A stretch of DNA of 14,074 nucleotides, from the IMG/VR virus record IMGVR_UViG_2778261358_000016, positions 1-14,074 of that record, one strand, 5' to 3'. Under the pieces are notes generated by a model, which saw nothing but the letters and a program-made list of their open reading frames with translations, made no database searches and was not told the origin of the DNA. The stretch's first letter is position 1, and each line of letters begins with the position of its first letter. The stretch comes from a virus. Its lineage: Duplodnaviria > Heunggongvirae > Uroviricota > Caudoviricetes. A program made the translations under genes and the position numbers. Positions 822 to 6,319 of this stretch are shown here, piece after piece.

Positions 822-1275
822 AAACCGCTTGCAAAAAATTATCACGGGGCTGTATGCTTCCCCCGTCGCCCACATGGCGACCGGGTTTAGCAGCCTGAAT
901 ACATCTGGCGGACAGCCGCCCACATCCGATAAGCGGTTTTTTTGTGTCCGTAAACCTACCCATACCCGCATTATGGCGGGGCGTAACGGGGGAGCCTTTG
1001 TGCTCGCTGGTTTCCAGATGACCAGTCTGCTAACCCTGTTACGTCTCGCCACCATGTTTAGCAGCGTAGTAGCGAGACTCCTTAAAATTCATCTGGGAGC
1101 CTTTCACATGGCTGTATCCGCACGCCCTTATTTTGTCTGGCGCTTTATGCAGTGCCTGACAGACAGCATTGCAATATTCACCGTTACCGCAGCCACTGAA
1201 CGCGAAGCACGCGCCCAGCTGCCGCACGCACATCTGATTTTTGTCGCCCGTATTCGTCAGGGGGTAGGCTTATGA
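814..1275 (+). CDS. Hypothetical protein B (153 aa) carrying a C-terminal copy of the protein A domain
   Basis: ATG at 814 overlaps the stop of gene A (ATGCGTAA); AGGGG RBS; C-terminal 60 aa align with protein A (FVWRF, VTAxTEREAR, ARIRQG). Confidence 0.5.
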   Translation: MRKNRLQKIITGLYASPVAHMATGFSSLNTSGGQPPTSDKRFFCVRKPTHTRIMAGRNGGAFVLAGFQMTSLLTLLRLATMFSSVVARLLKIHLGAFHMAVSARPYFVWRFMQCLTDSIAIFTVTAATEREARAQLPHAHLIFVARIRQGVGL

Positions 1276-1947: not shown

Positions 1948-2247
1948 ATGAAACTTAAATATTCTGGCTTAACTGCCAGTGGCAAAACTCGCACTAAATT
2001 CATGCGCGGTGATATTTACCGCGACCAGTACGGCGGCACGGTAATGATTAAGGGCGTGGAGGAACGGCGCGTAACCTACCGTCGTGAAGGCTACGAATAT
2101 GATTGCGTGATGCCTGTTTATCAGTTCGACCGTGATTTTTCTCTGGTGCAGGCTGTACCGCGTAACGTTCCAACCAGCAGGGAGAAAGCACGCGCCAATA
2201 TTCAGGAAATAAGAAAGATGTTGAATGTATTCAGGGGTAAAAAATGA
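1948..2247 (+). CDS. Hypothetical small protein F (99 aa), translationally coupled to the replication helicase
   Basis: Stop TGA overlaps rep ATG (ATGA at 2244..2247); GGAG upstream; no recognisable motif. Confidence 0.5.
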   Translation: MKLKYSGLTASGKTRTKFMRGDIYRDQYGGTVMIKGVEERRVTYRREGYEYDCVMPVYQFDRDFSLVQAVPRNVPTSREKARANIQEIRKMLNVFRGKK

Positions 2248-3650
2248 AACTGGCACCGAACGTAAAACTGTTACCGAAAGATAAACACACTGAGGCGGTT
2301 ATTTTTGCGGGTGATAATGCTCACTCCTTTGCAGAACATTACATGATTGCACAGGCCAAAAAAGCAGGCGATCCCATCCCTCCGGTTTACCTGGGCCGTT
2401 ATCAGTTAAGCGAACTGGACAATTTACAGATTGTTGATGAAGGACGATACAGAGCAAAGGTCATACGCGCCGGAAACCTGGACGATATGCAGATGCTGAC
2501 CATTGCCACCAAACTGGCGATCGCAGGTGTCCGGGAAGCGCGGTTACTTTCAGAGAATTTCGAACTACTGGAGGACTGGAGCGAGCAACTACCGCGACTT
2601 AAAGAAACCTGGGAACGCGGGGAAAGTCTGGTCATGAATGGCGTAAAGCGAAAAATCACACTTCCCATCTCATGGGGTTCTGAGGGATTCGACGCGCAGC
2701 AAAGCTACGTAATTAAGGGGCTTATTCCGGCTGAATCATTATGCAGCACCTACGGGGCCAGCGGTTCTTATAAATTGTTCCTGGCTATTTCCTGGTCGTG
2801 CCATGTTGCCACAGGTATGGCATGGGGAGGCCGCAGGGTAAGTAAGGGCGCGGTTATCTATATCGCTGGCGAAGGCAGTATGGGCGTAAAACGCCGCGTT
2901 AAGGCGTGGGAGATAACCCACGACAAGGTGGTTACGGATTTGTGCATCGTTAACGCGCCTGTCTTCCCTGCATCGCCTGACTATGTGGAGCAGGTTATCA
3001 GGACTGCCGGACTTGTTAAGAGCAGAACGGGCGAAAATGTGCGGCTGATTGTGATCGACACGCTGGCCCGTTGCTTTGGTGGGAATGATGAAAATGATTC
3101 CCGTGATATGGGCGCATTTATCCAGGGGTGTGACGCGATAAAGCAGGCCACAGGGGCCACGGTACTGGTGGTTCACCATTCCGGCAAGGATGAAACAAAG
3201 GGGGCGCGAGGTTCCAGCGCATTCCGCGCTGCACTGGATGCAGAGTACCGAATCAGCCGGGAAAATTCAGACGTTACAGCACTGGTGGCGGCGTGTACGA
3301 AGATGAAAGACGCAGAGGAGCCAAAAGAGAGCGCATACGACCTTAAAAGCGTGGAGGTGTTTACCGATACCGATGGCGAAGAGATTGTGTCCATGGTGGT
3401 GATTGACGTTCCCCGCGCCCCTGCTGAACTGGAGCGCATAGAGGAGGCCGGGAACAAGACGGAAAATCACACGGCTTTATGGGGTTGTATCCGGTCACGT
3501 ATACAGCATGGTGATAAATGCACGATCCCGCTGCTACGTGATGACATGAAAAAGCTGGGATATGACACAAAACACCTTAAACGATGGTTAGCCAAACTGG
3601 AAAAAGACGGCGTGATTTGCGTCGATGGGGATGATGTTCACCCACTGTAA
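2244..3650 (+). CDS. Replication protein, RepA-like RecA-fold helicase (AAA_25 family) with N-terminal and C-terminal extra domains
   Basis: Motifs resembling RSF1010 RepA-type helicases: GASGSYKLFLAISW (P-loop region, deviant), VIYIAGEGS, VIDTLARCF (Walker B-like), VLVVHHSGKDETKGARGSSAF (HH..K and RGSS motifs); iteron array immediately downstream. Confidence 0.7.
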   Translation: MKLAPNVKLLPKDKHTEAVIFAGDNAHSFAEHYMIAQAKKAGDPIPPVYLGRYQLSELDNLQIVDEGRYRAKVIRAGNLDDMQMLTIATKLAIAGVREARLLSENFELLEDWSEQLPRLKETWERGESLVMNGVKRKITLPISWGSEGFDAQQSYVIKGLIPAESLCSTYGASGSYKLFLAISWSCHVATGMAWGGRRVSKGAVIYIAGEGSMGVKRRVKAWEITHDKVVTDLCIVNAPVFPASPDYVEQVIRTAGLVKSRTGENVRLIVIDTLARCFGGNDENDSRDMGAFIQGCDAIKQATGATVLVVHHSGKDETKGARGSSAFRAALDAEYRISRENSDVTALVAACTKMKDAEEPKESAYDLKSVEVFTDTDGEEIVSMVVIDVPRAPAELERIEEAGNKTENHTALWGCIRSRIQHGDKCTIPLLRDDMKKLGYDTKHLKRWLAKLEKDGVICVDGDDVHPL

Positions 3651-3714
3651 AAAGTGGGCGTTAAAAGTGGGCGTTAAAAGTGGGCGTTAAAAGTGGGCGT
3701 TAAAAGTGGGAATA
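3650..3714 (+). repeat. Iteron array: four perfect tandem copies of 13-bp AAAAGTGGGCGTT plus one degenerate copy; further GTGGG-core copies in both orientations to about 3895; candidate origin of replication
   Basis: Perfect 13-bp direct repeats start at the rep stop codon; inverted copy CGCCCACTTT at 3744..3753; additional AAGTGGGC/AGGTGGGC copies at 3774..3890. Confidence 0.7.
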
Positions 3715-3891
3715 GTGGGTAATTTAACTGGAATTTAACAAAATCGCCCACTTTCCCACGTGTATACATCCCAAAAAGTGGGCACTAAAAAAATACTTAT
3801 GAAACAGTACGATATAAAACCACAAAATCCCAGGTGGGACGAAGTGGGAAACCATGAAAAGTTGGTAGAAAAAGTGGGCACAGGTGGGCGC

Positions 3892-4143
3892 ATGACCAGA
3901 AAAACCAGAGATAAGACAGCACCAAAATATCGCGCATTAGACATGACAGAGCACGCCTTAAAGGTGGCAATCAGAACGATAGACCGACACGTAGGGGAAG
4001 GATACGCGAAGGAACATCCCGACCTGATAAGCGCATTCATGACCACAGCAGCGGCAAACTTTGCCACGCTGACAGAACGGGAGATCGCAGAAGCAGAACA
4101 GGTAACAACCATCAACGTTAAAACCGGAGAGGTGGAATCATGA
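3892..4143 (+). CDS. Hypothetical protein (83 aa; start uncertain, ORF is open from 3760)
   Basis: AGGTGG RBS before ATG at 3892; upstream part of the open frame is occupied by iteron copies; stop overlaps the SSB start. Confidence 0.4.
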   Translation: MTRKTRDKTAPKYRALDMTEHALKVAIRTIDRHVGEGYAKEHPDLISAFMTTAAANFATLTEREIAEAEQVTTINVKTGEVES

Positions 4144-4550
4144 CAGCACAGATAGCGGCTTACGGGCGGCTGGTGGACGACCCGCAGGTAAAACAGACCA
4201 GTAAGGGCACACCGATGACGCTGGCGCGTATGGCGGTATCGTTGCCATGTAGTCAGGCGCAGGATGGGCAGGCGACGTTATGGCTATCGGTCATCGCATT
4301 TGGTAAGCAGGCCGACTTCCTGGCTAAACATCAAAAAGGCGACGTTGCCAGCGTATCCGGCACGATGCAGGTCAGCCAGTGGACCGGACAGAACGGGGAA
4401 ACGCGGCAGGGTTATCAGGTTATTGCAGACAGCGTAATCAGTGCCCGTGCGGCACGTCCTGGCGGGAACAGACGCAAAACCACAGGCACACAGGGTAATC
4501 AGCCACCAGCGGGAGGCGATGACCCTTACGGTGACGGTATTCCGTTCTGA
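4140..4550 (+). CDS. Single-stranded DNA-binding protein (SSB) homolog
   Basis: OB-fold core resembling E. coli SSB (WLSVIAFGKQADFLAKHQKGDVASVSGTMQVSQWTGQNGETRQGYQVIADSV), Gly/Gln-rich linker and acidic C-terminal tip DDPYGDGIPF (compare DDDIPF); strong GGAGAGGTGG RBS. Confidence 0.75.
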   Translation: MTAQIAAYGRLVDDPQVKQTSKGTPMTLARMAVSLPCSQAQDGQATLWLSVIAFGKQADFLAKHQKGDVASVSGTMQVSQWTGQNGETRQGYQVIADSVISARAARPGGNRRKTTGTQGNQPPAGGDDPYGDGIPF

Positions 4551-4560
4551 GGGGGTGGCG

Positions 4561-4833
4561 ATGGTACATGACCGCATAGCGGAAGAACTCGAGGCGAAAG
4601 GCTTTTACCGGAGGGCGTCGGCGCGATGGGGTGAAGTCATGCTGCTGGTGGAGACAGACAAGGAACGGCATCAGGTTACGATGCGACGGCTGGAATGTTC
4701 CAGGAAGGCACAGAAGCCACCGGAGCCGCCGGATAACTTCGGAGACCTGAGAAAGGCAGTAGATCGCACTTATGCTGAAATGGGTATAGATGGTGTAAGC
4801 GATGAAATATGGCGAAATTACCAGGACAGATAA
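4561..4833 (+). CDS. Hypothetical protein (91 aa)
   Basis: GAGGGGGTGG RBS before ATG at 4561; followed by an intrinsic terminator; ORF-track start at 4441 would overlap SSB and is less likely. Confidence 0.45.
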   Translation: MVHDRIAEELEAKGFYRRASARWGEVMLLVETDKERHQVTMRRLECSRKAQKPPEPPDNFGDLRKAVDRTYAEMGIDGVSDEIWRNYQDR

Positions 4834-4839
4834 TCACAC

Positions 4840-4862
4840 AGCCGGAGCAATCCGGCTTTTTG
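4840..4862 (+). terminator. Rho-independent terminator closing the replication operon
   Basis: AGCCGGA-GCAA-TCCGGCT hairpin followed by TTTTTGTCATGTTTT. Confidence 0.6.
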
Positions 4863-4981
4863 TCATGTTTTGTAAATTATTTGTTCGTGGTTGTTCCACG
4901 TTGCTCGCTGACCGGAACGGCATATTTTACCCGACCTGAATCATGATTATTCTCGCCCGTGGTGCCAGGACGCTGGGGCCA

Positions 4982-5031
4982 TTTTCCCGCCTGTTAATGT
5001 GCTCGCCAATATTCATTACCAGGCGGGAAAA
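4982..5031 (+). repeat. Perfect 12-bp inverted repeat TTTTCCCGCCTG-N26-CAGGCGGGAAAA in the leader of the capsid operon
   Basis: Arms are exact reverse complements; about 90 bp upstream of the capsid start; not followed by a T-run on either strand. Confidence 0.5.
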
Positions 5032-5120
5032 CGATCGGTGCGATTACTGATTTCCTTATGAAAAACGGTTGAGTGTTTGCCGCGTCCTGGAGTTCCTTAC
5101 TTAACCCCAGGACTTTTTTT

Positions 5121-6278
5121 ATGCCGAGAATAATCGAATTACGCCAGCAGAAAACCGCCATTAAAAATCAGATGCGCGACATGCTGGAGAACGCGGAAAA
5201 AGAAAACCGCAGTCTTAACGATGCTGAGGGCGCAAAATTTGACGAATTACGCGCTAAAGCTGAATCCCTCGATAAAGACATTTCCCGCCTTGAAGCCATT
5301 GCAGACGAAGAGCGCAGCAAGCCAGGTAAAAGCAGCCAGACCACTGACCCCGCAGAACTACGCAACTACATTCTGACAGGTGAAACCCGCGCATTAAGTA
5401 CAGGCGTTCCCGCTGATGGTGGTTATACCGTTATCCCCGAACTGAACACCGAAATCATGCGAATGCTGACGGATGAATCCACCATGCGCCGCATCTGTAC
5501 CGTGAAGAAAATCAGCAGCAACGAGTTTAAGCAGCTTGTTTCCGCTGGCGGTGCGACCGTTAACCACGGTGAAGAGGGTAAGACACGCGAACAGACCAGC
5601 ACCCCGCAGATTAACGAGGTGAGCATTAAGCTGTATCCGGTCTATGCGTACCCGCGCACCACATAGGAAATCGTGGATTTTTCCGATGTGGACATCCTTT
5701 CATGGCTGACGGGTGAGATTGGCGACACCTTCACGGAAACCGAAGAAAGCGATCTGGTTGTGGGCGACGGTGACAAAAAAGCAAAAGGTTTTTTATCCGT
5801 ACCCCGTGCAGAGAAGAACGACAAAGAGCGTGATTTTGGTACGTTGCAGGTAATTAAACCTTCCGAATCTCTGGCGTGGACATCTGCGGACCCGCTGATC
5901 GACCTGAAATTTGCATTACGTAAAAAATACCGCAAAAACGCGGTCTGGGTGGTTAACTCCACGACGGCGGCAAAACTTCAGAAGGTGAAGAACGCGAACG
6001 GTGATTACATCTGGCGCGACCGTTTACAGGCGGGTGATCCTGATACGTTGCTGGGCCTTCCGGTCGAATATCTGGAGTTTATGCCTGATAACGTTATTGC
6101 CCTGGGTGACTTCAAACGCGGTTACTACATTGTTGATCACGAAACAGGTGTTCGCACCAGACCGGACAACCTCACAGAGCCGGGCTTCATCAAAATTTTC
6201 ACGCAGAAATATTTAGGCGGTGGCGTGGTGGATTCGAACGCGATCAAGATTCTGGAACTGCCACAGGACGACGATTAA
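5121..6278 (+). pseudogene. HK97-family major capsid protein interrupted by a single in-frame amber codon (TAG 5664..5666); pseudogene or suppression-dependent
   Basis: ORFs 5073..5666 and 5673..6278 are in the same frame, separated only by TAG; conserved capsid region continues across the stop (YPRTT*EIVDFSDVDILSWL...GDGDKKAKGFL); N-terminal coiled-coil delta-like domain; AGGA RBS before ATG 5121. Confidence 0.7.
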
Positions 6279-6288
6279 CAGCATACAG

Positions 6289-6319
6289 AAGGGGCTTAAA
6301 AGCCCCTTTAGTGTTTTAT
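6289..6319 (+). terminator. Intrinsic terminator/attenuator directly after the major capsid gene
   Basis: AGGGGCTT-AAA-AGCCCCT hairpin followed by TTAGTGTTTT; overlaps the protease start region. Confidence 0.5.

Follow-up and report, generated by a model that had tools for sequence, protein, structure and literature searches.

The inverted repeat ahead of the capsid operon of a capsid-forming PICI is probably the central hairpin of a switch-like leader RNA

Introduction

We think it probable that the perfect inverted repeat lying ahead of the capsid gene in the 14,074-nucleotide stretch of DNA analysed here (the window) forms the stem of the central one among three hairpins in a structured 5' leader of about 160 nt, and that this leader is a cis-acting switch between two folds which governs the capsid operon of capsid-forming PICIs (cf-PICIs). 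The most likely mode of action is that of an attenuator-like switch: sequestration of the ribosome-binding site (RBS) in all lineages, joined in E. coli by a terminator 1-7 nt before the ATG. The initial annotation of the repeat had offered, as one possibility, RNA structure as a control on read-through to the structural genes, and in outline this is what emerged, the dyad being one of three covarying leader hairpins.

The window is an EcCIEDL933-type cf-PICI of E. coli, a phage satellite adjoining phoQ, which forms the right end of the window. EcCIEDL933 is the prototype of the capsid-forming PICIs (bioRxiv 10.1101/2022.09.08.507074); in O157:H7 EDL933 the island is found between roxA and phoQ. 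Overexpression of AlpA alone gives EcCIEDL933 capsids without a helper (bioRxiv 10.1101/2025.02.11.637232), and the slot preceding the packaging operon is a variable accessory region (10.1101/2025.02.11.637232). In the literature searched we found no description of how the packaging operon of cf-PICIs is switched on, only AlpA being named, as an activator of induction.

Results

The island and the place of the dyad within it

By megablast, the region is present in 841 of 5426 complete E. coli genomes, with 99.9% identity to strain CFSAN061761 and 98% to EDL933. Pfam searches identified an AAA_25 replication protein (2244-3650), an SSB (4140-4550), a PerC-family protein (4561-4833; 90 aa as annotated in relatives), an HK97-type major capsid protein (5121-6278), a prohead protease and a portal, together with a head completion protein, a connector, an HNH endonuclease and the small and large terminase subunits. 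The major capsid gene (5121-6278, + strand; Phage_capsid matches on both halves) is the first of the packaging operon, and the dyad is placed in the 287-bp spacer between it and the PerC-family gene. The capsid gene is interrupted by an in-frame amber codon at 5664-5666 (CAG to TAG, Gln182), a single C-to-T change that is its sole difference from the 1158-bp capsid gene of CFSAN061761; barring a sequencing error or codon suppression, the island in this particular genome probably does not make its own capsid. Three further features of the island can be recorded here. Between the capsid and protease genes (6288-6309, +) there is a 9-bp G+C-rich hairpin with a T-rich tail, which may be a partial terminator or a stabiliser setting the capsid-to-protease ratio. 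In the spacer just 3' of the replication gene, direct 10-mers at 3677 and 3690 are each complementary to 3745-3754, and these repeats (3677-3754) are a candidate replication origin. A cos site is expected between the HNH and TerS genes, by likeness to HNH-dependent cos phages.

The dyad (hairpin H2; 4982-5031, + strand) comprises TTTTCCCGCCTG at 4982-4993 and its exact reverse complement CAGGCGGGAAAA at 5020-5031, 26 nt apart, just as first described; its 3' end is 89 nt from the capsid ATG at 5121, in keeping with the roughly 90 bp reported. The upstream terminator after which it was said to lie is likewise present, as a terminator-like hairpin with a T-run at 4840-4857 (+), detected by terminator scan, which ends the upstream ssb-PerC unit. 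A repeat search and minimum-free-energy (MFE) folding extended the dyad to 18-nt arms (4982-4999 / 5014-5031) that form 17 of 18 pairs, with one T/C mismatch, around a 14-nt loop; relatives have a hairpin at the same position with other stem sequences. No second inverted repeat with perfect arms of 12 bp or more and a loop of up to 60 nt was found anywhere in the window. At least one such repeat was nonetheless held by 3.7% of 1000 dinucleotide-preserving shuffles, so the statement that the dyad is too long to be chance went too far: taken alone it is unusual, suggestive rather than compelling, and we regard it as real because its pairing is kept across relatives.

Two familiar kinds of palindrome were compared with the dyad. 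Like an intrinsic terminator it has a G+C-rich stem-loop, with a stem of 12-18 bp, but no U-run follows the stem on either strand (the sequences downstream are CGATCGG on the + strand and TGGCCCC on the - strand) and the terminator scan passed it over; that it is not a terminator, as originally stated, therefore stands for the dyad, the terminator-like hairpin being H3, described below. Nor does it behave as a dispersed palindrome of the REP/BIME kind, many copies in unrelated intergenic regions not being found: the E. coli-type leader was matched at 470 places, spread over 432 of the 5426 E. coli genomes, with a median of one per genome, and among the leader matches listed all the full-length ones abut 'phage major capsid protein'. 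Sites resembling TTTTCCCGCCTG with at most 2 mismatches number 8 in the window against 1.8 expected, one of them at 5280-5291 inside the capsid gene; the extra sites have no counterpart in relatives, and their excess probably reflects codon or oligonucleotide bias.

A predicted promoter places the dyad within the transcript

From conservation alone, a sigma-70-like promoter is predicted at 4926-4953 (+), with a -35 element TTTACC (4926-4931), a 16-nt spacer and a -10 element TATTCT (4948-4953) exactly 5 nt 5' of the first leader hairpin, H1. A consensus promoter scan passes over it, since only 8 of 12 positions match. In all of 93 distinct upstream segments TAnnnT stands exactly 5 nt ahead of H1 and the -35 position has TT, 48 of the 93 having TTTAC(A/T/C). 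Given such a promoter, H1 would form the 5' end of the transcript, placing the dyad at about +24 to +73.

Upstream of the predicted promoter lies a conserved box, TTTGTAAATTATTTGT (4869-4884, +), with two TTTGT 11 nt apart and a core that is invariant in distant relatives; it could be an activator site, AlpA's or another's, of the late promoter. The distance from box to H1, obtained by position subtraction, is about 88-90 nt in 9 of 10 leaders checked and about 100 nt in the tenth (L091). The interval itself varies in sequence, and in many relatives a terminator-like hairpin is found there. The window contains no second copy of the box, which is also found in islands without H1-H3. A loose look-alike, TTCTGTAAATCAT, is present about 90 nt 5' of alpA in CFSAN061761 (L002). 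In EDL933 (L001, 7435-7790) a 354-bp insertion with a 74-aa ORF inside it separates the PerC-family gene from the upstream box; the insertion is flanked by two copies of the 4840-4857-type terminator hairpin, lies 5' of the promoter and leaves the leader intact.

Anatomy of the leader

Hairpin H1 (4959-4981, +; GUGGUG CCAG GACG CUGG GGCCA) was predicted by MFE folding and shows compensatory changes in relatives, its stem appearing as CCAG/CUGG, CUCA/UGAG or CUCC/GGAG. Between H2 and H3, E. coli-type leaders alone have a small linker hairpin (5033-5052, +), predicted by MFE and absent from relatives. H3, found by repeat search and MFE, occupies 5084-5120 (+) together with the seven T residues (5114-5120) that directly precede the ATG; its arms (5084-5094 / 5103-5113) form 11 pairs, including one mismatch, around an 8-nt loop and hold the leader's only Shine-Dalgarno-like sequence, AGGA at 5109-5112. 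A stem-loop followed by T7 is the form of an intrinsic terminator, an activity that is predicted for H3; the simple terminator scan misses it because of the stem mismatch. Variants of H3 among E. coli-type leaders are G.U-compatible. In other lineages H3 is without the T-run, yet covers GGA/GAGA at about -12; termination may thus be specific to the E. coli lineage. Just 5' of H3, at 5059-5073, E. coli-type leaders, and these only, have a four-codon mini-ORF (ATG AAA AAC GGT TGA) with no Shine-Dalgarno sequence.

The + strand of the window leader folds with z = -5.1, and the minus strand folds well too (z = -4.1), so that assignment of the structure to the + strand rests on the promoter, the G.U bias described below and the link to the ATG. 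All 27 representatives drawn from 58 box-carrying leaders have the same order—H1, H2 beginning 0-4 nt on, a pyrimidine-rich linker, and H3 ending a few nt short of the ATG.

Distribution of the leader among related islands

Leaders were collected through a capsid-protein scan of species-representative genomes, which yielded islands in Shigella, Rosenbergiella, Citrobacter, Erwinia and Gilliamella, through three capsid-protein scans of IMG/VR, and through one IMG/VR scan for the H1 DNA motif; a fourth IMG/VR scan brought no further H1 variants. In all, 131 leaders with a recognisable first hairpin were extracted, 98 of them distinct. The E. coli-type leader is carried by about 8% of complete E. 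coli genomes (432/5426), of which 360 have a single match covering at least 80% of the query, the full-length matches among those listed being at least 93% identical. At least 120 contigs of IMG/VR carry the main-class H1 motif, and in every one of the 118 that could be tested a capsid start follows 120-146 nt downstream.

A subgroup of islands (L043, L044, L046, L050 and L052) has the box, a terminator-like hairpin and a -10-like element, TGTTAAAT, these elements being about 215 nt 5' of the capsid ATG, and a leader of about 45 nt without H1-H3. The surroundings of the -10 in these short-leader islands are complementary to the start-codon region. The existence of islands lacking H1-H3 implies that the module is a regulatory add-on, dispensable for capsid assembly or packaging.

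H2 is conserved as a helix and not as a sequence

The islands of Rosenbergiella, Citrobacter, Erwinia and Gilliamella have a dyad at the same place before the capsid ATG, built from unrelated sequences. Conservation in related islands had been proposed as a test of the dyad, and the answer is divided: position and pairing are kept throughout the 98 leaders, and the stem sequence differs between lineages. Those 98 leaders have 45 distinct H2 arm pairs, of about nine stem types, such as TTTCCCGCCTG, GGCCGTTTAATC, TGTCCACC(C/T)GG, GGCCGTCAG, GCCGCCTGAC, GCCCGCCCC and GGTCGCTTAC. H2 starts 0-4 nt after H1, its loop measures 14-49 nt, and its apex ranges from a plain loop to a three-way junction, the base stem being under selection and the apex free. 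Many relatives have no more than 9-12 bp of uninterrupted stem at the base. A GCCG core is common to many of the stems, and H2 is thus not free of sequence constraint.

Pairing was counted in a MAFFT alignment (A4) made without fitting to structure. Standard pairs fill 90.4% of H1+H2+H3 cells, a share that falls to 33-48% once the partners are shifted by 1-3 columns; the figure is conservative, because 11 E. coli-type rows misaligned in H2 were counted as unpaired. Both sides have changed in 11 of the 12 aligned H2 pairs, and the covariation score was matched by none of 500 shuffles, a control that overstates significance for sequences that are related, as these are. A covariance model, R1, finds the window leader (E = 1.4e-10) and misaligns the H2 arms, which is why pair counts were taken from the MAFFT alignment.

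Non-Watson-Crick cells in the H2 columns, read on the + strand, are G.U in 26 cases and A.C in 10, a moderate bias, and the arm changes seen in E. coli-type leaders are wobble-compatible (C-to-U in L020, A-to-G in L026). Varied stem sequences, variable loops and the G.U bias together indicate selection on an RNA helix rather than on a DNA operator; half-site spacing that ranges over 14-49 bp, and a location inside the transcribed region in every lineage, make a dimeric DNA-binding protein an unlikely partner. We conclude from these comparisons that the dyad is probably an RNA helix on the sense strand and not a protein-binding site. In most main-class leaders (e.g. L064:1398-1432) the apex forms a three-way junction with two short hairpins, having 5-nt loops (GCGAG/GAGAA and GAGAG/GGGAU), followed by AAAAAG; these hairpins, for which comparative support is weak, bear a faint resemblance to the boxB type.

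H1 can pair with H3 as well as with itself

The H1 segment CCAGGACGC (4965-4973) is fully complementary (9/9) to GCGTCCTGG (5082-5090), in the 5' arm of H3; the latter segment, GCGUCCUGG (5082-5090, +), could therefore pair alternatively with H1 around H2, as its complementarity and covariation indicate. CCAGGACGC is at the same time a copy of the 3' arm of H3, CCAGGAC. The counterpart of this long-range pair in the main class is AGACGTGA / TCACGTCT, and in a third class GACGGGA / TCCCGTC. Across the 98 leaders 97% of the cells of the long-range helix are paired, one pair being UA in 77 leaders, CG in 11 and GC in 10; this covariation of H1 with H3 comes from about three or four lineages, and so from few independent events. 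H1 with CUCC-GACG-GGAG is accompanied by CCCGUC in H3 in 10 of 10 cases, and CUCA-GACG-UGAG always by CACGUC: the differing base (U, G or C) shifts together with both its partners, in H1 and in H3, with no exception in the 98 leaders. Two leaders with a GGCG loop retain the long-range pair as G.U. The consensus structure returned by RNAalifold on A4 consists of the long-range helix plus H2.

The same nucleotides of H1 thus appear to be under selection to form two pairings that exclude each other, the hallmark of a switch. When the long-range pairing is forced, the leader is 5-10 kcal/mol less stable than in the H1+H2+H3 fold; the default should therefore be the off state, and something must favour the on state.

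The Gilliamella-type leader, which has no sequence similarity to the others, has a 5' hairpin (TTAGACTGC/GCAGTCTAA) in which GCGCAGATATG repeats the sequence of the start-codon region; downstream of it TTTCATATCT-CGC pairs with the start codon itself. The same logic, a decoy held in a 5' hairpin, seems to have arisen with unrelated sequences in the islands of Enterobacterales and of Gilliamella.

Candidate partners of the leader

We considered several molecules that might act on the leader. The product of the neighbouring PerC-family gene was rejected as the factor acting at the dyad: outside E. coli-type loci, tblastn detects PerC only in L031-L033, and Pfam finds none among the 10 ORFs upstream of the leader in 9 relatives. 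Where PerC is present its identity ranges from 76 to 100%, with the dyad unchanged.

C4 is the immunity RNA of the P1, P7 and P4 type. An Rfam search identified a C4 antisense RNA in the early region of the window (969-1056, +; 72.7 bits), the only family to reach threshold there; nothing meaningful was found in 4800-5200 with the cut-off relaxed to E = 10, nor in 9 relatives searched to E = 0.1. C4 was discarded as a regulator of the leader, there being no complementarity between it and the window leader, duplex energies no better than those of shuffles, and a C4 in only 1 of the 10 related islands examined; an 8-mer match of the window C4 with the H3 of relatives is at chance level.

Late operators of helper phages were sought in 50,697 phage records, in which the window leader has no match; the main-class leader matches only PICI-like records of that collection. 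A conserved leader peptide was dismissed as well: the ATG preceding H1 is missing in many leaders, and where it exists the frame that it opens reads MYILKSGTQT-stop in some relatives and runs for 35 codons in the window. Two other long-range pairings fell on comparison with relatives. The first, in which capsid codons 2-5 (5125-5135) match the -10 region (4945-4955) at 11/11 positions in the window, is broken without compensation in EDL933, and relatives show only matches of T-runs with A-runs instead; the second, of the H2 3' arm with 5281-5290 in the capsid gene, 10/10, has no counterpart in relatives.

The effector search thus gave no conserved leader peptide, Rfam aptamer, complementary RNA or linked gene, and the H2 apex proved variable. 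With no effector identified and an alternative fold that is the less stable of the two, the switch is something we infer from the dual pairing.

Discussion

How the leader may work

Transcription would start at about 4959-4961, and the RNA would run through H1, H2 and H3 to the capsid ATG. In the default fold (H1+H2+H3) the RBS would be hidden and, in the E. coli lineage, transcription would be ended at U7, leaving the operon off; in the alternative fold the 5' arm of H3 would be taken up by H1, with H2 enclosed between them, which would turn the operon on. H2, common to both folds, would hold the competing segments close together, closing off a stretch that, left unpaired, would form a loop of about 100 nt, or else would be a docking or processing site for a factor that tips the balance. 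The simplest role for H2 could be that of a structural clamp enabling the exchange between H1 and H3, a site for a protein or for a double-strand-specific nuclease being equally possible.

A bolder proposal, which we make tentatively and hold to be somewhat unlikely, is that the leader represents a new class of sensor RNA for satellites, in which a signal docked at H2 would unlock H1, the decoy so released would open H3, and capsid synthesis would be timed to the helper cycle. What docks at H2, or in many lineages at its three-way-junction apex, might be a protein encoded by the satellite or by the helper phage, or else a host factor, nuclease or small molecule.

Alternative explanations

The leader could instead act as HK022 put RNAs do. 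putL is an RNA of about 73 nt with two stem-loops, directly downstream of PL (PMC9378689), and H1+H2 (4959-5031) is likewise 73 nt long from the predicted +1 and has two stem-loops, a likeness of topology only. As a cis-acting antiterminator bound to RNA polymerase, H1+H2 would make the enzyme read through H3-U7 and the post-capsid hairpin, and these terminator-like elements (the latter at 6288-6309) would indeed give a processive antiterminator work to do. We consider this unlikely nevertheless. Model R1, run with filters off against HK022 23000-31000, gave a best E of 1.6, a one-way comparison of the leader model against put; particular bulges and bases are essential to put, while the apex of H2 can be exchanged freely; most relatives have no U-run after H3; and the covarying complementarity of H1 and H3 would be left without a role.

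We attach similarly little probability to a role of H2 in processing, as a substrate of RNase III, or in stability, as a protector of the mRNA. The 17 of 18 pairs of the window stem, its closeness to the 5' end, and the retention of the helix without its sequence or apex, as for a signal of structure only, would all suit such a role, but the 9-12-bp continuous base stem of many relatives is short for RNase III. Cleavage could free H1 to open H3, and in that form processing is compatible with the two-fold switch rather than exclusive of it.

We think it very unlikely that the E. coli-type stretch from promoter to H3-U7 encodes a free-standing small RNA of about 160 nt, acting in trans and having the dyad as one of its hairpins. 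A predicted promoter (4926-4953) and a terminator-like H3-U7 (5084-5120) do bracket a highly structured RNA; in relatives, however, the leader lacks the U-run and passes directly into the capsid ATG, the motif is always 120-146 nt before the capsid start, and no target complementarity was found.

The idea first put forward for the dyad, a binding site for a late regulator, fares poorly. A dimeric activator or repressor recognising the dyad as a DNA operator might be the PerC-family protein, AlpA or a helper factor; we judge this highly improbable. The idea draws on the presence of a perfect dyad between a regulator-like PerC-family gene and a late operon. The dyad is, however, downstream of the conserved -10, at +24 to +73; its half-sites are replaced by unrelated ones in related islands, at spacings of 14-49 nt and with more G.U than A.C departures; and PerC is absent from most islands with this leader architecture, having been found only in the E. 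coli type and three others. A helper's late activator, the other form the suggestion took, is opposed by the lack of any match to the leader among the phage genomes searched, and by the formation of capsids upon AlpA overexpression alone (10.1101/2025.02.11.637232). Finally, that the dyad is a chance palindrome without function, for which the shuffled windows leave some room, is extremely unlikely given that pairing at this position has survived many replacements of sequence.

Relation to known systems

The two-fold switch that we favour resembles the attenuators and riboswitch platforms of trp, pyrBI and mgtA in having a terminating or RBS-hiding hairpin just before the first gene, an upstream segment that pairs with the 5' arm of that hairpin (here H3) in a mutually exclusive way, and compensatory changes in both folds. 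It differs from them in that we recognised no conserved leader peptide, no aptamer-like core and no tRNA- or protein-binding motif. With phage lambda nut it shares a leader hairpin in a phage-type operon, and the apex of the commonest relatives has 5-nt G-rich loops and then AAAAAG; unlike nut, the window H2 has a plain 14-nt loop with no boxB-type 5-nt loop, no boxA-like CGCTCTTA occurs in 4959-5120, and no gene for an N-like protein was identified.

Late promoters of satellite P4 that depend on P2 Ogr or P4 Delta have a dyad, TGT-N12-ACA, near -55. The present dyad is similarly near the start of a satellite morphogenetic operon; unlike theirs it is downstream of the promoter, much longer, and variable in sequence and spacing, and conserved half-sites upstream of the promoter, at about -55, were not found. 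Capsid production here, moreover, needs no helper activator (10.1101/2025.02.11.637232). putL and putR of HK022 are alike in being cis-acting RNAs of about 73 nt with two stem-loops, at the start of an operon transcript and 5' of terminators (PMC9378689); they have no detectable similarity to the leader in sequence or structure, and both H3 and the H1:H3 complementarity are foreign to them.

Significance

The leader is a conserved structured RNA, so far undescribed and uncurated, and a candidate for a new Rfam family. Its study corrects a natural assumption, that the neighbouring PerC-family gene or a helper's late activator acts through the dyad. A conserved promoter followed by a covarying leader, present in hundreds of islands, offers a concrete and mutable handle on the way in which the packaging operon is switched on; and where cf-PICIs are to be turned into delivery vehicles, capsid yield is likely to be limited by this leader.
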